DNA from: Macrostomum lignano
Taxonomy: Eukaryota
Assembly (NCBI GenBank): GCA_002269645.1
Contig: NIVC01004740.1
Coordinates: 1 to 36,472, forward strand
Length of the DNA: 36,472 bases
Direction: 5' to 3'
Part shown: piece by piece, positions 20,935 to 35,880 of the stretch
Position numbering within the stretch: the first letter of the stretch is position 1
Layout of the letters: each line of letters starts with the position of its first letter
The notes under the pieces: model-generated
What the model was told of the DNA's origin: nothing
Seen by the model: the letters and a program-made list of their open reading frames with translations, nothing else
Databases searched by the model: none
Made by a program: the position numbers and the translations under genes

Positions 20935-21610
20935 CTCACAACCACCTCACACCCACCCACTCATCACACCCACTCCTCACACCCACCTCACTCCTCACAC
21001 CCACCTCACTCCTCACATCCCCTCACTCCTCGCACCAACCTCACTCCCCACACCAACCTCACTCCTTACATCCACCTTCAATCCTCACACCCACCTCACT
21101 CCTCACATCCACCTCACTCCGCTCACCCACCTCACTCCGCCCACCCACCTCACTCCGCTCACCCACCTCACTCCGCTCACCCACCTCACTCCGCTCACCC
21201 ACCTCCCTCCGCTCCTCACTCCGCTCACCCATTTCACTCCGCTCACCTACCTCACTCCGCTCCTCACTCCGCTCCCCCACCTCACGCCGCTCCTCACTCC
21301 GCTCACACACCTCACTCCGCTCACCCACCTCACTCCGCTCACCCACCTCACTCCGCTCACCCACCTCACTCCGCTCACCCACCTCACTCCGCTCACCCAC
21401 CTCACTCCGCTCACCCACCTCACTCCGCTCACCCACCTCACTCCGCTCACCCACCTCACTCCGCTCATCCACCTCACTCCGCTCATCCACCTCACTCCGC
21501 TCACCCACCTCCCTCCGCTCCTCACTCCGCTCACCCACCTCACTCCGCTCACACACCTCACTCCGCTCACCCACCTCACTCCGCTCACCCACCTCGGTCC
21601 GCTCACCCAC
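20935..21610. repeat. Intronic minisatellite, 18-bp unit CACCTCACTCCGCTCACC
   Basis: Read directly; on the minus strand the unit contains the donor-like GAG|GTGGGTGAG. Confidence 0.92.
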
Positions 21611-22174
21611 CTCGGTCCCGGGACTTGGTCCGCCGCGCTCGGTCTGTCCTCTGCCAAAAACTGTCGGCTTAGTGAGCGGAAACCGCTTGACCACGGACAG
21701 ACTGCCCGACTTGACAATATAGATCCAATCGGAGTAATTGGTGTCCCTGGCCAGCACCTCCTCATTTTTATAGTAGTGAAAGTGCACGCTAGTGGAATCG
21801 CTCCGCGGCTTCAACAAGTCCAACGGGAAGCCTTCTAGATAATCGAGCGTTTTTAAAAACGCGCCAAAATCCGAGTCCAAGGCGCTGTGCTGGCCGCTAG
21901 ACATGAAAATGGCATGATAATTTTCTATGTCGATACTGAGCAGCTCAACCGTGTCCCTGCTGATCACATAGGCCTGTCGAATGGTTCTCTCGATGATAGC
22001 CAGCTCGCCGAAACTTTGGCCTTGGCTCAGATAGGCGACGGGTCTGGCGTAGCCTTGCTTCCGGTCCATCAGCATGACCATGCAGGTGCCTGAGAGAATG
22101 AAGTAGAAGCTCAGCGCCTTGTGGCCTTGACGGATGATGATTCGCCGAGGCTCGTAGCTTTCATACAGGCCCGC
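21611..22174 (-). CDS. Cyclic nucleotide-binding domain protein (CNBD2-like), exon with a cNMP-binding domain and the start of a second one
   Basis: Acceptor ccccaacag|GCG; YESYEPRRIIIRQGHKALSFYFILSG...YLSQGQSFGELAIIERTIRQAYVIS...WIYIVKSGSLSVVK (FGE/R cNMP signature); donor GAG|GTGGGT. Confidence 0.85.
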
Positions 22175-22214
22175 CTGTTGGGGCGCGGGTGATGGGGAGC
22201 CGTACTGGGAGGCT

Positions 22215-25200
22215 GGGAAGGACTGCAGAAGAGACACAGGGAGGGACTGCAGAAGAGACACAGGGAGGGACTGCAAGAGACAGAGGGATGGACTGCAACA
22301 GACACAGGGAGGGACTGAGAGACACAGAAACGGGACTGAGAGACACAGAAAGGGACTGAAAGACACAGGGAGGGACTGAGAGACACAGGGAGGGACTGAG
22401 AGACACAGGGAGGGACTAAAAGACACAGAGAGGGACTGAGAGACACAGGGAGGGACTGAGAGACACAGAAAGGGACTGAGAGACACAGAAAGGGACTGAA
22501 AGACACAGGGAGGGACTGAGAGACACAGGGAGGGACTGAGAGACACAGGGAGGGACTAAAAGACACAGAGAGGGACTGAGAGACATAAGGAGGGACTGAA
22601 AGACACAAGAAGGGACTAAGAGACACAGGGAGGGACTAAGAGACACAGGGAGGGACTAAGAGACACAGAGAGGGACTAAGAGACACAGAGAGGGACTAAG
22701 AGACACTGAGAGGGACTGAGAGACACAGAAAGGGACTGAGAGACACAGAAAGGGACTGAAAGACACAGGGAGGGACTGAGAGACACAGGGAGGGACTGAG
22801 AGACACAGGGAGGGACTGAGAGACACAGAGAGGGACTAAGAGACACTGAGAGGGACTGAGAGACACAGAAAGGGACTGAGAGACACAGAGAGGGACTGAG
22901 AGACACAGGGAGGGACTGAGAGACACAGGGAGAGACTAAGAGACACAGAAACGGGACTGAGAGACACAAAAAGGGACTGAAAGACACAGGGAGGGACTAA
23001 GAGACACAGGAAGGGACTAAGAGACACAGAGAGGGACTAAGAGACACAGAGAGGGACTAAGAGACACTGAGAGGGACTGAGAGACACAGGGAGGGACTGA
23101 GAGACACAGAGAGGGACTGAGAGAAACAGGGAGGGACTGAGAGACACAGAAAGGGACTGAGAGACACAGAAAGGGACTGAAAGACACAGGGAGGGAGTGA
23201 GAGACACAGGGAGGGACTGAGAGACACAGGGAGGGACTGAGAGACACAGAAAGGGACTGAAAGACACAGGGAGGGACTGAGAGACACAGGGAGAGACTGA
23301 GAGACACAGGGAGGGACTAAAAGACACAGAGACGGACTGAGAGACGTAAGGAGGGAATGAAAGACACAGAGAGGGACTGAGAGACACAGGTAGGGACTGA
23401 GAGACACAGAAAGGGACTGAGAGACACAGAAAGGGACTGAAAGACACAGGGAGGGACTGAAAGACACAGGGAGGGACTGAAAGACACAGGGAGGGACTGA
23501 GAGACACAGAAAGGGACTGAGAGACACAGAAAGGGACTGAAAGACACAGGGAAGGACTGAGAGACACCGGGAGGGAGTGAGAGACACAGGGAGGGACTGA
23601 GAGACACAGAAAGGGACTGAAAGACACAGGGAGGGACTGAGAGACACAGAGAGGGACTGAGAGACACAGGGAGGGACTAAAAGACACAGAGAGGGACTGA
23701 GAGACATAAGGAGGGACTGAAAGACACAAGAAGGGACTAAGAGACACAGGGAGGGACTAAGAGACACAGGGAGGGACTAAGAGACACAGAGAGGGACTAA
23801 AAGACACAGAGAGGGACTAAGAGACACTGAGAGGGACTGAGAGACACAGAGAGGGACTAAGAGACACTGAGAGGGACTGAGAGACACAGAAAGGGACTGA
23901 GAGACACAGAAAGGGACTGAAAGACACAGGGAGGGACTGAGAGACACAGAGAGGGACTGAGAGACACAGGGAGGGACTGAGAGACACAGAGAGGGACTGA
24001 GAGGCACAGAAAGGGACTGAGAGACACAGAAAGGGACTGAAAGACACAGGGAGGGACTGAGAGACACAGAAAGGGACTGAAAGACACAGGGAGGGACTGA
24101 AAGACACAGGGAGGGACTGAAAGACACAGGGAGGGACTGAAAGACACAGGGAGGGACTGAGAGACACAGGGAGGGACTGAGAGACACAGAAAGGGACTGA
24201 GAGACACAGAAAGGGACTGAAAGACACAGGGAGGGACTGAGAGACACAGGGAGGGACTGAAAGACACAGGGAGGGACTGAGAGACACAGGGAGGGACTGA
24301 GAGACACAGGTAGGGACTGAGAGACACAGAAAGGGACTGAGAGACACAGAAAGGGACTGAAAGACACAGGGAGGGAGTGAGAGACACAGGGAGGGACTGA
24401 GAGACACAGGGAGGGACTGAGAGACACAGAAAGGGACTGAGAGACACAGAAAGGGACTGAAAGACACAGGGAGGGACTGAGAGACACAGGGAGAGACTGA
24501 GAGACACAGGGAGGGACTAAAAGACACAGAGAGGGACTGAGAGACGTAAGGAGGGACTGAAAGACACAGAGAGGGACTGAGAGACACAGGTAGGGACTGA
24601 GAGACACAGGGAGGGACTGAGAGACACAGGGAGGGACTGAGAGACACAGGGAGGGACTGAGAGACACAGGGAGGGACTAAAAGACACAGAGAGGGACTGA
24701 GAGACATAAGGAGGGACTGAAAGACACAAGAAGGGACTAAGAGACACAGGGAGGGACTAAGAGACACAGGGAGGGACTAAGAGACACAGAGAGGGACTAA
24801 GAGACACAGAGAGGGACTAAGAGACACTGAGAGGGACTGAGAGACACAGAAAGGGACTGAGAGACACAGAAAGGGACTGAAAGACACAGGGAGGGACTGA
24901 GAGACACAGGGAGGGACTGAGAGACACAGGGAGGGACTGAGAGACACAGAGAGGGACTAAGAGACACTGAGAGGGACTGAGAGACACAGAGAGGGACTAA
25001 GAGACACTGAGAGGGACTGAGAGACACAGAAACGGGACTGAGAGACACAGAAAGGGACTGAAAGACACAGGGAGGGACTGAGAGACACAGAGAGGGACTG
25101 AGAGACACAGGGAGGGACTGAGAGACACAGGGAGAGACTGAGAGACACAGAAACGGGACTGAGAGACACAAAAAGGGACTGAAAGACACAGGGAGGGACT

Positions 25201-28200
25201 AAGAGACACAGGAAGGGACTAAGAGACACAGAGAGGGACTAAGAGACACAGAGAGGGACTAAGAGACACTGAGAGGGACTGAGAGACACAGGGAGGGACT
25301 GAGAGACACAGAGAGGGACTGAGAGAAACAGGGAGGGACTGAGAGACACAGAAAGGGACTGAGAGACACAGAAAGGGACTGAAAGACACAGGGAGGGACT
25401 GAGAGACACAGGGAGAGACTGAGAGACACAGGGAGGGACTAAAAGACACAGAGAGGGACTGAGAGACGTAAGGAGGGACTGAAAGACACAGAGAGGGACT
25501 GAGAGACACAGGTAGGGACTGAGAGACACAGAAAGGGACTGAGAGACACAGAAAGGGACTGAAAGACACAGGGAGGGACTGAAAGACACAGGGAGGGACT
25601 GAAAGACACAGGGAGGGACTGAGAGACACAGAAAGGGACTGAGAGACACAGAAAGGGACTGAGAGACACAGAAAGGGACTGAAAGACACAGGGAAGGACT
25701 GAGAGACACCGGGAGGGAGTGAGAGACACAGGGAGGGACTGAGAGACACAGAAAGGGACTGAAAGACACAGGGAGGGACTGAGAGACACAGAGAGGGACT
25801 GAGAGACACAGGGAGGGACTAAAAGACACAGAAAGGGACTGAGAGACATAAGGAGGGACTGAAAGACACAAGAAGGGACTAAGAGACACAGAGAGGGACT
25901 AAGAGACACTGAGAGGGACTGAGAGACACAGAGAGGGACTAAGAGACACTGAGAGGGACTGAGAGACACAGAAAGGGACTGAGAGACACAGAAAGGGACT
26001 GAAAGACACAGGGAGGGACTGAGAGACACAGAGAGGGACTGAGAGACACAGGGAGGGACTGAGAGACACAGAGAGGGACTGAGAGGCACAGAAAGGGACT
26101 GAGAGACACAGAAAGGGACTGAAAGACACAGAAAGGGACTGAGAGACACAGAAAGGGACTGAAAGACACAGGGAGGGACTGAAAGACACAGGGAGGGACT
26201 GAAAGACACAGGGAGGGACTGAAAGACACAGGGAGGGACTGAAAGACACAGGGAGGGACTGAGAGACACAGAAAGGGACTGAGAGACACAGAAAGGGACT
26301 GAAAGACACAGGGAGGGACTGAGAGACACAGGGAGGGACTGAGAGACACAGGGAGGGACTGAGAGACACAGAAACGGGACTGAGAGACACAGAAAGGGAC
26401 TGAGAGACACAGAAAGGGACTGAAAGACACAGGGAGGGAGTGAGAGACACAGGGAGGGACTGAGAGACACAGGGAGGGACTGAGAGACACAGAAAGGGAC
26501 TGAGAGACACAGAAAGGGACTGAAAGACACAGGGAGAGGGAGGACTGAGAGACACAGGGAGGGACTGAGAGACACAGAGGGACTGAAGACAAGGAGGGAC
26601 TGAGAGACACAGGGAGAGACACAGAGGGACTGAGAGACACAGGGAGGGACTGAAGACACAGAGAGGGACTGAGAGACACAGAGGGACTGAAAGACACAGA
26701 AAGGGACTGAGAGACACAGGGAGGGACTGAGAGACACAGGGAGGGACTGAGAGACACAGGGAGGGACTGAGAGACACAGGGAGGGACTGAGAGACACAGA
26801 AAGGGACTGAGAGACACAGAAAGGGACTGAAAGACACAGGGAGGGACTGAGAGACACAGAGAGGACTGAGAGACACAGGGAGGGACTGAGAGACACAGAG
26901 AGGGACTAAGAGACACTGAGAGGGACTGAGAGACACAGAAGGGACTGAGAGACACAGAAAGGGACTGAAAGACACAGGGAGGGACTGAGAGACACAGAGA
27001 GGGACTGAAGAGACACAGAGGACTGAGAGACACAGAGAGACACAGAGGAGAGGACTGAGAGACACAGAAACGGGACTGAGAGACACAGAAAGGGACTGAA
27101 AGACACAGGGAGGGACTGAGAGACACAGGAAGGGAGACTAAGAGACACAGAGAGGGACTAAGAGACACAGAGAGGGACTGAGAGACACTGAGAGGGACTG
27201 AGAGACACAGGGAGGGACTGAGAGACACAGAGAGGGACTGAGAGAAACAGGGAGGGACTGAGAGACACAGAAAGGGACTGAGAGACACAGAAAGGGACTG
27301 AAAGACACAGGGAGGGAGTGAGAGACACAGGGAGGGACTGAGAGACACAGGGAGGGACTGAGAGACACAGAAAGGGACTGAGAGACACAGAAAGGGACTG
27401 AAAGACACAGGGAGGGACTGAGAGACACAGGGAGAGACTGAGAGACACAGGGAGGGACTAAAAGACACAGAGAGGGACTGAGAGACGTAAGGAGGGAATG
27501 AAAGACACAGAGAGGGACTGAGAGACACAGGTAGGGACTGAGAGACACAGAAAGGGACTGAGAGACACAGAGACTGAAGACAAGGGAGGGACTGAAAGAC
27601 ACAGGGAGGGACTGAAGACACAGGGAGGGACTGAGAGACACAGAAAGGGACTGAGAGACACAGAAAGGGACTGAAAGACACAGGGAAGGGACTGAAAGAC
27701 ACAGGGAGGGACTGAGAGACACAGGGAGGGACTGAGAGACACAGAAAGGGACTGAGAGACACAGAAAGGGACTGAAAGACACAGGGAGGGACTGAGAGAC
27801 ACAGGGAGGGACTGAGAGACACAGGGAGGGACTGAGAGACACAGAGGGACTGAAAGACACAAGAGGGACTGAGAGACACAGGAGGGACTAAGAGACACAG
27901 GGAGGGACTGAGAGACACAGAGAGGGACTAAGAGACACAGAGAGGGACTAAGAGACACAGAGAGACTGAGAGACACAGAGAGGGACTAAGAGACACAGAG
28001 AGGGACTAAGAGACACTGAGAGGGACTGAGAGACACAGAAAGGGACTGAGAGACACTGAGAGGGACTGAGAGACACAGGGAGGGACTGAGAGACACAGAA
28101 AGGGACTGAGAGACACCGGGAGGGAGTGAGAGACACAGGGAGGGACTGAGAGACACAGAAAGGGACTGAGAGACACAGGGAGGGACTGAGAGACACAGGG

Positions 28201-29415
28201 GACTGAGAGACACAGAGGGACTGAAAGACACAGGGAGGGACTGAGAGACACAGGGAGAGGACTGAGAGACACAGGGAGGGACTAAAAGACACAGAGGGAC
28301 TGAGAGACACAGAGGGACTGAAAGACACAGGGAGGGACTGAGAGACACAGGGGGACTGAGAGACACAGAGGGACTAGAGACACAGAAGGGACTGAAAGAC
28401 ACAGGGAGGGACTGAGAGACACAGGGAGAGACTGAGAGACACAGGGAGGGACTAAAAGACACAGAGAGGGACTGAGAGACACAGGGAGGGACTGAAAGAC
28501 ACAGAGAGGGACTGAGAGACACAGGGAGGGACTGAGAGACACAGAAAGGGACTGAGAGACACAGAAAGGGACTGAAAGACACAGGGAGGGACTGAGAGAC
28601 ACAGGGAGGGACTGAGAGACACAGGGAGGGACTGAGAGACACAGAAAGGGACTGAGAGACACAGAAAGGGACTGAAAGACACAGGGAAGGACTGAGAGAC
28701 ACCGGGAGGGAGTGAGAGACACAGGGAGGGACTGAGAGACACAGAAAGGGACTGAAAGACACAGGGAGGGACTGAGAGACACAGAAGGGGACTGAGAGAC
28801 ACAGGGAGGGACTGAGAGACAGAGGGAGGGACTGAGAGACACAGAAAGGGACTGAAAGACACAGGGAGGGACTGAGAGACACAGAGAGGGACTGAGAGAC
28901 ACAGGGAGGGACTAAGAGACACAGAGAGGGACTAAGAGACACAGAGAGTGACTAAGAGACACTGAGAGGGACTGAGAGACACAGAGAGGGACTAAGAGAC
29001 ACTGAGAGGGACTGAGAGACACAGGGAGGGACTGAGAGACACAGAAAGGGACTGAGAGACACAGAAAGGGACTGAAAGACACAGGGAGGGACTGAAAGAC
29101 ACAGGGAGGGACTGAAAGACACAGGGAGGGACTGAGAGACACAGGGAGGTACTGAGAGACACAGAAAGGGACTGAAAGACACAGGGAGGGACTGAGAGAC
29201 ACAGGGAGGGACTGAGAGACACAGGGAGGGACTGAGAGACACAGAACGGGACTGAGAGACACAGGGAGGGACTGAAAGACACAGGGAGGGACTGAGAGAC
29301 ACAGGGAGGGACTGAGAGACACAGGGAGGGACTGAGAGACACAGGGAGGGACTGAGAGACACAGGGAGGGACTGAAAGACACAGGGAGGGACTGAAAGAC
29401 ACAGGGACTGAGAGA
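22215..29415. repeat. 7.2-kb intronic minisatellite, 20-bp unit GAGACACAG(G/A)(G/A)AGGGACTGA, ~360 copies
   Basis: Occupies essentially all of intron 22175-29481; rare variant units recur, indicating higher-order structure. Confidence 0.97.
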
Positions 29416-29875: not shown

Positions 29876-30135
29876 AGTAGTATAGAAAAAGACGCTTCTA
29901 GACCCAGAGCACTTTTTTAATGACCGTTTTAAGGGTCTAGAGGGGGGACACGGGGGGTAAATAAAAAAACACATCTAATCACCATTAACACAAAAAGACA
30001 TCTAAAAAACCCCTAACAATAAAAATCACTTCCAAACACTCCCCAACACCCCCCTCGCGTCCCCCCTCTTAAGACCTTACAAACGGCCATTAAAATAAGG
30101 TCTGATCTAGAAGCGTCTTTTTCTATACTACTACT
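29876..30135. repeat. Terminal ~260-bp inverted-repeat (fold-back) structure
   Basis: 27-bp perfect IR AGTAGTATAGAAAAAGACGCTTCTAGA (29876-29902) vs 30106-30132; imperfect pairing extends to ~80 bp per arm. Confidence 0.85.
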
Positions 30136-30755: not shown

Positions 30756-31903
30756 TTAGTTCGCAGACATTATCTGGTTCTCATAAAAAGAACCCAATAT
30801 TTCTTCACCGTCCTTATCAGCAATTATATAGGTTGTAGGATTGGTATTTAAAACTTTACTGATAGTAAATTTCTCACTTATCTTCCAATATCCTTTTCTT
30901 CCTTTTTCAAACTTATCTTTCCATTTATAGATATAAACAGAATCACCAACCTTAAAAGATTTCTTTTTATTTTTTTCAAATTTTCCAAAAGTAACTTTAA
31001 CTTTTTCAGGATTGTTATAAGCTTGTTGAGGAGTCATCTTTATCGCCGAATGATATGAATTGTTATAATCTTTTACAACGTCTGGTAATATTTTTACCCA
31101 CTTTTGGTTTCCATTAAGACTAAACTGAAACCATAATTTCTTACCTAAAGTTCGATTAAATCTTTCTATTAATGCGTTTTTACTCTCTCCATAAATAGAA
31201 TAAATTTTATTAATATACTCCCCATTCGCGTCTTTTTCCTTTCTTTTCCTTTTTCAAAATGATACAATTTATACATATGAGGATTGTAAAATTCTTTTCC
31301 TTCATCAACACACAATCTTTCGCTTTTTTCTCCAAGATTTCTAAAAGCAGCAGCAACCTCCTCTCCTTTTTTGGATTTTAAAGGAACAGCCCACGCGTAT
31401 CGAGTAAAACCATCTAGTATGGTTAAGATATATTTATATCCTCTTTCATTTGGCATCGACATTAAATCAGCATACCAAATTTCATTCTTTTTGAAGTTCA
31501 TGATTTTTCTATAAAATTTAGGTTTTCGGTATTCTTTATGAAGAACCTTTGCCTCATCAAAACTTAGCCCACTACCACTTAACAACAAACACTCAACACA
31601 ATTATTTCCATGTTGGTTGTAATTAATTCCCAAACCAAATTTAACTTTAGACTGTAAGATTTTTTTAACCATCCATCTAGTTAATTTTTGACCTACCGAT
31701 AATCCCTGTAGGTTATCTAATCCTTGAATCATTTTTCTATCGGCTTCATGTTTTAATCTTAATGCTTCCTCGGGTGAGTTCTTATCAGCATCTCTGTATG
31801 CTAAGTCATGATAGTATGCTAACCAATCAATACCGTTAATGGGAATTGAATCGGCTTTTGGAGTATTATCAGGATTTAATCTCAAATCTAACCTAGTCCC
31901 GGG
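30756..31903 (-). CDS. PLA2-integrase gene, exon 2: PLA2 catalytic part fused to a Polinton rve integrase; -1 frameshift near 31240
   Basis: PGTRLDLRL...PINGIDWLAYYHDLAY...KHEADRKM (parvovirus-type PLA2); then AKVLHKEYRK...IWYADL...YKYILTILDGFTRYAWAVPLKSK...VDEGKEFYN; shifted frame ...IERFNRTL...YNNSYHSAIKMTP...FKVGDSV...GSFYENQI. All three DDE residues are visible. Confidence 0.9.
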
Positions 31904-32236
31904 TAGTTTACCCTCAATCTTTCGAATGAGGCTGGAGCACACCTTAAGCGGCGATAATTACCGCCCATCTCCGTCTGCTCTCTGAACCTTCTCCTTATAT
32001 TTAAAATACTTAGGAGCTTGGCTGCGCATTGCCACCGTGTCTTCAAGCTTTTTACCATCGAACCATAGGTTCGCGTGCAAAGCACGATTGGGAAGAGGAG
32101 TTACCTCTGTTCCTTCAAAAGATTTCTCAATTGAAGTGGTACTTGAAGCTGTATGACGGGTTTCACGCAATTTGGAGATGTCGCCACAAATAGTGACTAG
32201 CAAGGACATTGCCTTCCTCACTCAGGCCACGGGTTA
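31904..32236 (-). ncRNA. Group I intron, subgroup IC1-like, 333 nt, no ORF, terminal nucleotide A
   Basis: P (AAAUUGCGUGAAA), Q (AAUGCGCAGC), R (GUUCAGAGAGCAGA) and S (AAGGUGUGCUCC) in order; P1 with a U.G splice-site pair; P3 CAUCUCC/GGAGAUG; P4; P5abc; P6; P7 GAGCA/UGCUC; P8; P9 with GAAA loop; P9.0; P10. Removal restores NFTG|PGT in frame. Confidence 0.92.
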
Positions 32237-32362
32237 ACCTGTGAAGTTCATTGATGGTAGGTGTAGTTCCCCTGTATATTTACCAGTAGTAAAGATTGGT
32301 GGTAAGCTTGTTAATCCTTTTTGAACATCTAACAATCCTCCTTCAAACACTATTTGGTTCAT
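32237..32362 (-). CDS. PLA2-integrase gene, exon 1 (42 aa, ...GELHLPSMNFTG)
   Basis: TAAAAATG start at 32362; ELHLPxxNFTG is the N-terminal half of the parvovirus-type PLA2 Ca2+-binding-loop motif; 126 nt, phase 0 with exon 2. Confidence 0.85.
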
Positions 32363-33643: not shown

Positions 33644-35108
33644 ATGGCTGAAACAAAAACTATGTGGAGTGATAAATTTCATTTCAAAAAGCACCGACAG
33701 TATATTAATGAGGTCAGAGCAAGAGATTTAAATTATACCCTACCAACAAGTGATAATTCAAATAACTTTACTACTGGAACGGTAACTTTTGACATCGGCG
33801 CAACCAACACTATATTGGATATGAAAAATGCATTTTTCCGTGTTAGATGGTTATATACTAGAAATGATGGAACTGCTCTTGCAGCCGGAGATATCGCAGA
33901 TCGATCCGGAATAATAATAGAAAATGATTGGTTTTATAAATGTTTTTCCCAAGCTCAACTAACTGTTAATGGTGCTGAGGTTGAGACATCATCAAACCCC
34001 GCAGAGATTAATGGAGTTTTGAAACATTTAAATTATACTTATTTATCAAAACAAGTTGGTGATAATGTTGGGTGGATGCCGGATAAAGGTAATGGTCAAG
34101 CAGTAGTTTTCCCTAATGTACAAAACGCAGCCGGTGCAGATACTGCAGCGCTAATTGCATACCTTAATACAAACATAGTTCCAGTTGTAACCACTATGAC
34201 TAATACAAAAGCTATTAACACCGGGTTTATAGATCGTCAGAATAAATTCCCAGTCGCGGTTTTAACCACAGCAACAGCATATGAGCAAGACTTTTCAATC
34301 TTCCCGCTATTTGGGTTCTTCTCACCAAATCGGGTATGGAAAGGATTAAAATTTGGGATACAGTTGCAAATATCTGGTGGATATCAGCCTAGGATACTTT
34401 ATGGAACCTCAATTTCAACCGATATAGCAGTTCGTATAGCATTCAATTAGTCGTACCAACTATTGAGGTAACAGCCCCACTTTTAAAACACATCGATAAT
34501 CAGTTAACGCATGATCAGGAAATATTTTATTTGAATCGTCGACATTTTATGCGAACCATTAATAACAGGATTCATTCCAGTGGCAAATATTGACATCAAA
34601 ACGTCGGGTGAGATATATTTTTGTTTGGTTTAAGATAACAAATAGAAGGAGTAAAAGAGCAAATGGGGATTTATATTGGCTTCAATCCGGTGCCATAGCA
34701 GCACAAGCAGCCACCGCAACAGACAATGCGGCTGCAGCTATTAACGAGTTTAATGTTCAGAATATCCGCCTGCAGGTTGATGATCAATATTATCCAGTTA
34801 AAGATCCTCTTAATCTAAATATTGCAAATAATGATGTTAATGATTTTATAAAATATTATCACGATTATGCCAAAAATGAAGCATATGCCGTCCCTCAGTA
34901 CACATCTACAGAGTTTCTAAACATTCATCCAGTGGTTGTTTATGATCTAACGGCACAGAAAGAAAACGTAGCCAATATTGGACTTAATTATATGTTAGAG
35001 ATTAATAAAACCGGCAATCAGGCACTTGACGCCCACGTATTGTTTCTAGAGGAATATATGTCAATTGCTAAAGCTGATGGCACGATTGTTCGGGACGCAC
35101 CATTGTAG
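33644..35108 (+). CDS. Major capsid protein (double jelly-roll, Polinton PY/hexon-like); frameshifts near 34440 and 34572
   Basis: ~490 codons once joined; VTFDIG...ILDMKNAFF...CFSQAQLTVNGAEVE...WMPD; bridging frame IQLVVPTIE...; FQWQILTSKRRVRYIFVWF; IRLQVDDQYYP; FLNIHPVVVYDLT. Confidence 0.78.
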
Positions 35109-35159: not shown

Positions 35160-35880
35160 ATGGTAAAGGCAAAACACGATAAGATATTCAAATGATCCTT
35201 TTTTGTTTAGTAATCGGAGGATCAGGTAAAGGAAAAACACACTTTGTTTACGATTTATTAACAACAGATGGAATGTTAGACTATAATAATTTAATAATTT
35301 ATACTAATAAACCTAGAATAAAATATTATGAATTTCTTAAACATGGATTAAAAAACAAATTAAAAAAGATGTCTTGTTTAGAATGTTAAGAGCATATGAG
35401 CAATATGAGGATGATGACGAACCGCGATTAATCTACGAGACATTGAGGATTTATGTAAAACAATGGCACAACAGCCAGAAAACATCACGAGCCCCAACTG
35501 TTAGAGTATCAACCCGATTAGCCTATGATCAAATTCCAAAACATGATAAAACACTAATTATTTTGATGATTGTATTAATGACGGTGATCAAGAATTGCAA
35601 AAGGAAATTTTTGTTAGTGGTAGAGGAGATGGAATGGAGCTTTTTATCTAACACAGTCCTTTAGAGAATTAGAATCGATTATAAAAAGAATGCAAGTTGT
35701 TGTGTAATGTTTGATTTAGATAATTATGATTTACAAAATATACACGCTAGGTTTAAAACCATTTAAAAGTATGTAAAAAATTTGGGATGATAGCCATACA
35801 AACTATCAATCGAGGTTAGAAAGGAAAAATCGAATCTTAAAAGATATAAAAGGATGAGGAAGAATAATTCCCACTATAAA
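35160..35880 (+). CDS. A32/FtsK-like DNA packaging ATPase, several -1 frameshifts
   Basis: Walker A CLVIGGSGKGKT; MLDYNNL; Walker B IIFDDC after frame correction near 35562; GR...FYLTQS downstream motif. Confidence 0.82.

Follow-up and report, generated by a model that had tools for sequence, protein, structure and literature searches.

Group I introns of nuclear genomes have been described, in the accessible text of a 2013 review, as residing exclusively in the rRNA genes of eukaryotic microorganisms (PMC3679873). The published exception found to this rule is provided by the Polinton-like viruses of protists, with introns of the RF00028 family reported for such viruses of Rhodomonas lacustris, Paulinella micropora, and Desmodesmus armatus in the available part of a 2025 study (PMC12220804), whose available text and two supplements do not contain the word 'Macrostomum'. 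In giant viruses, the polr2a and polr2b genes of Bodo saltans virus carry both 'parental' introns that bear a nuclease and 'offspring' introns that are ORF-less, as described in the available part of the report (PMC5871332). In the animal adintoviruses, the accessible text of the principal paper uses 'intron' once, for a maturase-like gene (PMC8502044), and neither that text nor that of a nematode Polinton preprint reports a group I intron in animal Polintons. No report of a group I intron in an animal nuclear genome was found in the open-access literature.

The window considered here is a 36,472-nucleotide stretch of DNA (contig NIVC01004740.1) from the genome assembly of the flatworm Macrostomum lignano. 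On its minus strand, positions 32236-31904 form an ORF-less, IC1-like group I intron of 333 nt, referred to as type A, whose boundaries are fixed exactly by three intron-less copies from the near subfamily (L032, L101, and L102). A preliminary description of this DNA had given the same coordinates and length and a reading frame split by the insertion, all of which are correct; the first intron codon in the exon 1 frame is a stop codon. It had also assigned the insertion to group I (IC1-like) and called for a covariance-model search. In 'evalue' mode, RF00028 matches 31913-32246 of the minus strand with 64.6 bits, above the gathering cut-off of 50, and an E-value of 5.8e-16, which bears out the assignment. 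The intron is missed in 'gathering' mode, where a scan of the whole window returns 0 Rfam matches, a loss at the filter stage. The G+C content of the intron is 47%, compared with 33-37% in the exons, and its minimum-free-energy fold has a z-score of -2.71, with 0 of 100 shuffled sequences folding as well. Both P2.1 and a P5abc domain with an A-rich bulge, which we take to be the hallmarks of subgroup IC1, are present. The insertion is a genuine IC1-like group I intron.

The fold comprises the elements expected from the preliminary description, whose P1, P2.1, P3, P4, P5a, P5b, P6, P6a, P7, and P9 are as drawn there and are paired in nearly all of 61 distinct copies. P1 is formed on the minus strand by exon positions 32241-32237 and the guide at 32227-32223, with a U.G pair at the 5' splice site in 61/61 distinct copies. 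P7 (31982-31976 with 31939-31934) contains a bulged A and the G-binding G-C pair in a variant sequence, and each of its six pairs is held in all 61; the variant proposed earlier is real but not unique, being shared by giant-virus introns. Between the two P7 strands lie the 3' strand of P3 (31972-31966) and a short P8, a helix that is located as described but is better drawn with 6 bp and a 4-nt loop, its inner pairs differing among copies. The stretch at 31933-31904 holds P9.0 (31933-31932 with 31906-31905), P9 with a GAAA loop, and the terminal A (31904). The P10 guide (32233-32228) forms 5/6 pairs in the window copy, as had been stated, but its outermost pair is present in only 21/60 distinct copies and one position never pairs. 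Likewise, the helix named P5c (GAACC/GGUUC) exists, but it sits in an optional 30-nt insert with two small hairpins in the P5abc domain (32088-32059), which only 28 of the 85 complete copies of type A contain, and not in the constant P5c at about 32112-32092.

Comparison of the 61 distinct type A copies, which are at least 87% identical to the window and vary at 105/333 positions, reveals how these helices have been maintained. P6, P7, P2.1, and P5a are paired in 61/61 copies, apart from one P5a junction pair (26/61), and P4 is broken in a single cell (60-61/61); P3 shows at most one broken cell per pair, and the range over P2.1, P5a, P5b, and P5c is 59-61/61. Across 83 pairs, 27 variant types retain pairing and 23 break it (167 vs 92 cells). 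Eight double changes that keep pairs were observed in P2, P3, P5b, and P9; four of them form one P2 block that may be a single event, and another (310-321) falls at a mostly unpaired position. Weak spots are one P5 pair (45/61), one P9 pair (16/61), the inner pairs of P8, the outer pair of P10, and P9.0, whose two pairs are broken five times and once, respectively. Since type A copies are related and probably recombine, these pairing counts are not independent. In the flanking exon, T, the base required for the P1 U.G pair, is the last base of the Gly codon adjoining the site in 95/97 intron-bearing copies in which the 5' end was read; in intron-less copies this codon ends in C in 5/7. Among terminal-A copies, pN/pS is 0.31 in exon 1 and 0.16 in the PLA2 part of exon 2; the corresponding values among terminal-G copies are 0.34 and 0.05. 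Exon 1 pN/pS among copies is 0.31-0.41, and the range over all groups and both parts is 0.05-0.41. Values below 1 could predate the intron or reflect recombination with spliced or intron-less copies. Judged at the sequence level, pairing conservation and pN/pS support function without proving it.

The interrupted gene encodes a fusion of a PLA2 domain with an rve integrase. Exon 1 (32362-32237, minus strand) has 42 codons, the last being the Gly codon before the insertion, and exon 2 (31903-30756, minus strand) encodes the rest of the PLA2 domain and the integrase, with the frames 31903-31169 and 31253-30756 sharing the sequence in this copy. A free-standing HNH/endonuclease VII-like gene (32911-32343, minus strand), likewise in two frames here, immediately precedes exon 1. 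On the plus strand are a probable double-jelly-roll major capsid gene (33644-35108, in two frames at 33644-34450 and 34566-35108) and a probable A32-type packaging ATPase fragment (35183-35389), the latter a weak assignment with PF04665 at E 0.033, below the cut-off. In the window copy, the integrase, HNH, and capsid frames are each broken. By comparison, intron-less L032 has a single open PLA2-integrase frame of 424 aa, which scores 31.6 bits with PF08398 (cut-off 23.9) and 29.2 bits with PF00665, under the cut-off of 32.6; the window integrase reaches 32.8 bits with PF00665, just over that cut-off. Relatives of the PLA2-integrase number 366, many with both domains, and none was found in a viral contig collection. 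The window capsid matches PF21738 at E 0.0011, below the cut-off, and has an ESM Atlas feature score of 0.97 to mostly viral clusters, with Preplasmiviricota the commonest in two of the top three. In 12 intron-carrying contigs, the same strand also encodes a protein-primed polymerase (PF03175), at a distance of 9-10.5 kb upstream, a count based on 91 scored candidates of 974; the window contig ends before the polymerase and includes only one element end. This terminus, occupying 29876-30132 on the plus strand and starting at 29876 with a host GAGT microsatellite on its left, contains an internal inverted repeat that matches at 27/27 nt and over about 82 nt at 83%; it is shared by other copies and could fold back as single-stranded DNA. 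The GAGT microsatellite is the insertion site of the element. The host gene is a PLA2-integrase fusion and its carrier is a Polinton; the Polinton context proposed earlier is thus upheld by the PF00665 integrase, the Atlas features of the probable capsid, and PF03175 in 12 contigs.

The intron belongs to a population of elements that occupy one site. The 107 distinct loci examined, comprising 30 of 40 from one set that overlap 106 of 150 from another, divide into 87 with type A, 12 with type B, 1 with type C, and 7 without an intron, proportions that are rough as the last 20 loci were chosen for diversity. Both intron-less and intron-containing alleles, which the preliminary description had suggested seeking, are therefore present in the assembly. 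Among type A copies, 85 are complete and 61 distinct, and two (L083 and L114) are missing the 5' half of the intron together with exon 1. The type A core motif has 127 exact matches in the assembly and that of type B has 29, with 0 for either in reversed controls. Other type A copies score 50.7-72.1 bits with RF00028; L035, L039, and the 5'-truncated L083 were not among the matches listed. The intron-less copies (L032, L101, and L102 in the near subfamily; L108, L109, L111, and L112 in the far one) have a continuous frame. A 12-nt canonical P7 motif was also tried as a genome probe and dropped, its 154 matches against 145 in the control being attributable to chance and repeats.

Type B introns (L094-L100, L103-L105, L118, and L119) are ORF-less, 321-325 nt long, and inserted at the same 5' site as type A. 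Their P2, P2.1, and P5abc are almost letter-identical to those of type A, whereas P3, P4, P5, P6, and P7 are different, and the P8 extension resembles that of type C; type B thus looks like a mosaic ribozyme, as far as its sequence can tell. RF00028 scores 41.6 bits, below the cut-off, in L103 and L118, with L094 and L095 not among the matches listed, and the inferred 3' site would add one codon to the PLA2 loop. Type C introns are about 880 nt long (C870:164794-165673 spans 880 nt), have a canonical-type P7, and reside in the far Polinton subfamily. A genome search with RF00028 yielded 28 scored candidates, all above the cut-off at 72.7-91 bits, and the 11 examined are type C. The order exon 1, nuclease ORF, and ribozyme core is seen in 26/28 of these matches, the 5' part being assigned by position; of the exceptions, C184 has no exon 1 among the matches listed and C954 is rearranged. 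The notion that type C is a deletion product fusing a nuclease gene to the core was rejected, with exon 1 located 78-108 nt upstream of the nuclease match in 26/28. Furthermore, several database proteins from other assemblies (P0003, P0033, P0241, P0243, P0248, and P0394-P0396) have a head or tail that is translated ribozyme, and P0392, which clusters with P0003, is intron-less; the intron family therefore occurs beyond the Macrostomum lignano assembly, as does its presence or absence at the site.

A terminal G is near-universal in group I introns, and published exceptions exist. The last base of the window intron (31904) is A, a feature absent from the preliminary description. The 3' site is placed there because P9.0 and the intron-less copies put it there, and the window copy, having no terminal G, is therefore classed as a terminal-A variant, like the Diderma intron L2066. 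Type A copies end in A in 64/87 cases and in G in 23/87, while all type B (12/12) and type C (11/11) copies examined end in G. Terminal A occurs in all three peripheral-domain classes. It is accompanied by a pyrimidine at exon 2 position 3 (60/63), and terminal G by a G at that position (20/22). This association may reflect stronger P10 pairing; linkage explains it equally well, the two sites being 3 nt apart. Apparently, A is also the last base of L145/L294, an RPB1 intron of a giant virus in which P7 has the same variant sequence as in type A, while L150 and L290, which are closely related to this intron, have a terminal G. According to the accessible text of the respective reports, Diderma L2066 self-splices in vitro with a terminal A (PMC3679873) and the coral intron ND5-717 yields ligated exons in vivo despite the missing terminal G (PMC6545197). 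Because both introns splice without a terminal G, a terminal A need not block splicing.

Two kinds of nuclease genes are associated with the intron. In the gene slot upstream of exon 1 at 87 loci, the HNH gene is intact in 54, broken or partial in 12, and absent in 21, and 18 of these 21 HNH-less loci have a PD-(D/E)xK-like gene instead (e.g., L010:1940-2443); judging from this distribution, the two genes appear to replace each other in the slot. The HNH-like homologue of L032 matches the phage endonuclease VII and HNH profiles phrog_1035 (E 2.8e-6) and phrog_2255 (E 7e-5). Group I introns in the RPB1, capsid, and Hsp70 genes of giant viruses contain relatives of this protein, and two of those introns share the P7 variant (L293, E 9e-18; L299, E 7e-11). 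In the PD-(D/E)xK-like protein, residues D65, E76, and K78 are nearly invariant, and its structural model (pLDDT 95.7) has EcoO109I as the best match (Foldseek E 5e-4; Z 9.8, with the next at 6.2; rmsd 3.8 over 166 aligned residues). The free-standing protein is 58-66% identical to the internal ORF of type C, so one nuclease family is both intron-internal and free-standing. The type C nuclease ORF extends into the ribozyme core in 10/10 copies examined. No solved structure matching either nuclease by sequence was found, nor was a relative of the PD-(D/E)xK-like nuclease found in the viral contig collection. Intron-less L032 has an intact HNH gene upstream, and L101 and L102 have an HNH-type gene there; nuclease and intron are thus not tightly linked. 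The architecture suggests that the intron would behave selfishly, passing from one Polinton copy to another by homing, with the nuclease gene inside the intron in the related subfamily (type C), and that in the window subfamily an upstream HNH-like or PD-(D/E)xK nuclease may drive the ORF-less intron by collaborative homing.

The nearest relatives found are giant-virus introns. Among 32 viral motif matches, the P7 variant has a full intron context in 6, with the other 26 having none; it was found in 13 of 14 metagenome loci, as giant-virus-type RPB1 or capsid introns, and is rare in an untargeted viral set. When P7 is masked, type A groups with 11 of the 16 viral cores that have the P7 variant, in a clade with a support of 0.52, and its identity to viral introns with the same P7 is 0.611, compared with 0.610 to others. 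The underlying tree includes 103 distinct cores, with 136 of 318 columns kept and a midpoint root, and was built from type A and viral cores, as types B and C did not fit the search pattern; it does not settle the donor among these 103 cores. The comparison of origins covered viral cores, with fungal and algal rDNA introns left out. A search of a phage collection gave only 48-nt matches at E 8e-3. On the basis of sequence affinity, the source of the intron is likely to lie in the gene pool of giant viruses and Polinton-like viruses and not in host rDNA. Other group I-like cores were encountered in short viral contigs of 1.2-8 kb (L277-L279 and L281-L288) and are unlike giant-virus introns. In L173/L292, a long ORF of phage or bacterial type is split by a further group I-like core whose P7 has the 5' strand of the type A variant.

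Regarding function, it is proposed that once a PLA2-integrase transcript is made, the intron would fold and bind free guanosine in P7, followed by cleavage after the U of the U.G pair and exon ligation, with P9.0 and P10 setting the 3' site, hence the tolerance of a terminal A. Unspliced RNA meets a stop at the first intron codon, so the whole PLA2 domain depends on splicing. Splicing of the intron family as predicted, terminal-A copies included, is considered probable. Joined exons were sought in 4 of 20 sequencing runs, on L002:900-2400, none of the runs being recorded as RNA; contigs of X1, X4, X5 (presumed RNA), and X18 (DNA-like) contain no joint at the splice sites, a comparison that is insensitive, given that X18 also missed the intron-less DNA copies. 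Two joints among the run contigs lie away from the splice sites. The 3' part of the intron is uncovered in X4, which does not count as evidence. The assembly has 0 matches in which the end of the main exon 1 variant is followed by a base other than T, so an RNA junction with that variant would be diagnostic.

Several other explanations of these data have been weighed. In one of them, splicing is limited to copies with a terminal G (types B and C and part of type A), and the copies ending in A, which form the majority and include that of the window, are non-splicing passengers that multiply because other copies complement them. The loss of the terminal G in 64/87 type A copies and the broken frames of the window copy are in keeping with it, as is a short exon 2 frame in 14/46 type A copies with enough downstream sequence. 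Core pairs, however, are equally intact in terminal-A copies, the exon 2 frame is open in 24/33 of them compared with 8/13 terminal-G copies, and published introns with a terminal A do splice, which leaves this explanation unlikely. It is still less probable, indeed very much so, that the fold is real but its removal needs protein help or a viral phase (e.g., a helper giant virus) and does not take place in chromosomal transcripts. The giant-virus affinity of the nearest relatives would fit such a dependence; host-factor-dependent group I introns exist, according to the accessible text of the 2013 review (PMC3679873), and published abstracts state that Polinton-like viruses can depend on giant viruses. 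Against this, the intron has a full P5abc and P2.1 without large protein-binding extensions. Removal by the spliceosome, with a GT close to the 5' site as donor and an AG in the vicinity as acceptor, is barely credible: 1 of 14 combinations (GT at 32238 with the AG ending at 31888) gives an in-frame, stop-free join, but it deletes six codons from the PLA2 loop, which is conserved, each of the remaining 13 produces a frame shift or a stop, and the conserved ribozyme core would be left unexplained.

A further explanation concerns the carrier, namely that the element derives from a non-animal contaminant or symbiont and was mis-assembled onto worm DNA at a simple repeat. Such an error would be favored by the similarity between the end of the element and the GAGT microsatellite where it joins host DNA, by the proximity of many element copies to contig ends, and by the window contig, which has neither a second element end nor a target duplication. 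The window itself, on the other hand, contains host calnexin exons (6591-3990, minus strand; PF00262), of which the one at 3993-4508 matches a protein labelled Macrostomum lignano at 100% identity, with most other named matches coming from animals. Also in the host part of the window, a cyclic-nucleotide-binding exon (21059-22081) and the element are separated by a long, strand-skewed host tandem repeat (22000-29400). The end at 29876 is sharp, as 39 other scored copies start matching at or within 8 nt of it, and the host flank is present at three places in the assembly, continuing in the other two (C24, 893 kb; C1293, 320 kb) into a GAGT microsatellite without the element. Moreover, the 127 and 29 motif matches and the 28 type C matches are spread across many contigs, and many copies are deep inside contigs of 0.3-1.4 Mb; a chimeric join at the simple repeat, conceivable for the window contig taken singly, cannot account for these copies. 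The 20 sequencing runs listed with the window stretch come from 7 studies and have a single organism label. With these observations, contamination is highly improbable. The Polinton family is integrated, in multiple copies, in the Macrostomum lignano nuclear genome, and the integration proposed in the preliminary description is substantiated by the calnexin identity, the sharp element end, and the empty sites in C24 and C1293.

Taken as a whole, a broader picture is put forward tentatively, as one slightly less likely than not: an animal nucleus harboring a living group I system of more than 180 motif- or model-defined copies, in which a single site of a Polinton gene is contested by three types of ribozyme that splice themselves (mostly with a terminal A), swap peripheral domains between cores, and home via a nuclease of restriction-enzyme fold that is both intron-internal and free-standing. 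An animal case of a group I intron would mean that DNA viruses, on integrating, are able to bring catalytic introns into metazoan chromosomes, where these stay under selection. Macrostomum lignano is used as a laboratory animal, and whether a group I ribozyme can splice from nuclear mRNA, and why such introns are otherwise absent, become questions that are testable in an animal. A single site with empty, nuclease-bearing, nuclease-less, terminal-A, terminal-G, and apparently mosaic forms offers a natural series for studying how 3' splice sites are chosen, how homing cycles proceed, and how RNA evolves by modules. There is also a warning for annotation: genes of this kind resemble pseudogenes, and the intron escapes Rfam when the whole window is scanned with default settings.

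In comparison with known systems, the intron belongs to a known class, and the open-access literature gave no precedent for its setting in a protein-coding gene of the nuclear genome of an animal, with empty, nuclease-bearing, and nuclease-less copies in one population. The rDNA introns of subgroup IC1, such as Tetrahymena L1925 and Diderma L2066, share P1-P10, a complex scaffold, the P7 G-C pair, optional presence, a cycle of nuclease gain and loss, and a precedent for the terminal A, but they reside in rRNA genes of microbes and not in a protein-coding gene of an animal, as far as the accessible text describes them (PMC3679873). The hexacoral introns ND5-717 and COI-884 are likewise group I introns in animal protein-coding genes, whereas they are mitochondrial, have a proposed fungal origin, and have no virus-like carrier in the available account (PMC6545197). 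Collaborative homing, in which an ORF-less intron is served by a nuclease gene beside the host gene, provides a parallel for the window subfamily; it was described from phage, according to the part of the report available, while here it is suggested by gene arrangement, with intron-less copies also having the nuclease gene (PMC11296320). Animal Polintons and adintoviruses resemble the present carrier in their integrase, PLA2-like domain, capsid, ATPase, and protein-primed polymerase; however, the adintovirus PLA2X, as presented in the accessible text, ends in a pX-like domain, and the PLA2 domain here is fused to the integrase (PMC8502044).

Further parallels are found among viral introns. Those of giant viruses resemble the present ones in core motifs, P5abc, and the P7 variant (environmental RPB1 and capsid introns), as well as in nuclease ORFs that reach into the ribozyme core and, in the available part of the Bodo saltans virus report, in ORF-less forms proposed to home in trans (PMC5871332). 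They differ in belonging to viruses of protists and in occupying RNA polymerase, capsid, or Hsp70 genes instead of the PLA2 domain of an animal Polinton. The nucleases also differ: those of Bodo saltans virus are HNH or GIY-YIG enzymes according to the same partial source (PMC5871332), while the type C internal nuclease is modelled with a type II restriction-enzyme fold. In terms of setting, a close case is that of the protist Polinton-like viruses, whose introns are similarly short (309-376 bp) and located in a protein-coding gene of a Polinton-like element in a nuclear genome (PMC12220804). The novelty claimed in the preliminary description accordingly stands for the animal nucleus, for which no precedent was found, and gives way for nuclear Polinton-like elements in general, as those of protists already have such introns in the accessible text (PMC12220804). 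In that text the hosts are only protists ("a few protist groups") and the flatworm is an animal; the host gene there, which precedes the capsid gene, has a product of about 50 aa without annotation, compared with a PLA2-integrase here; and the structure, subgroup, empty alleles, nuclease-bearing form, and terminal A, with which the available account does not deal, are all described for the Macrostomum lignano introns (PMC12220804).
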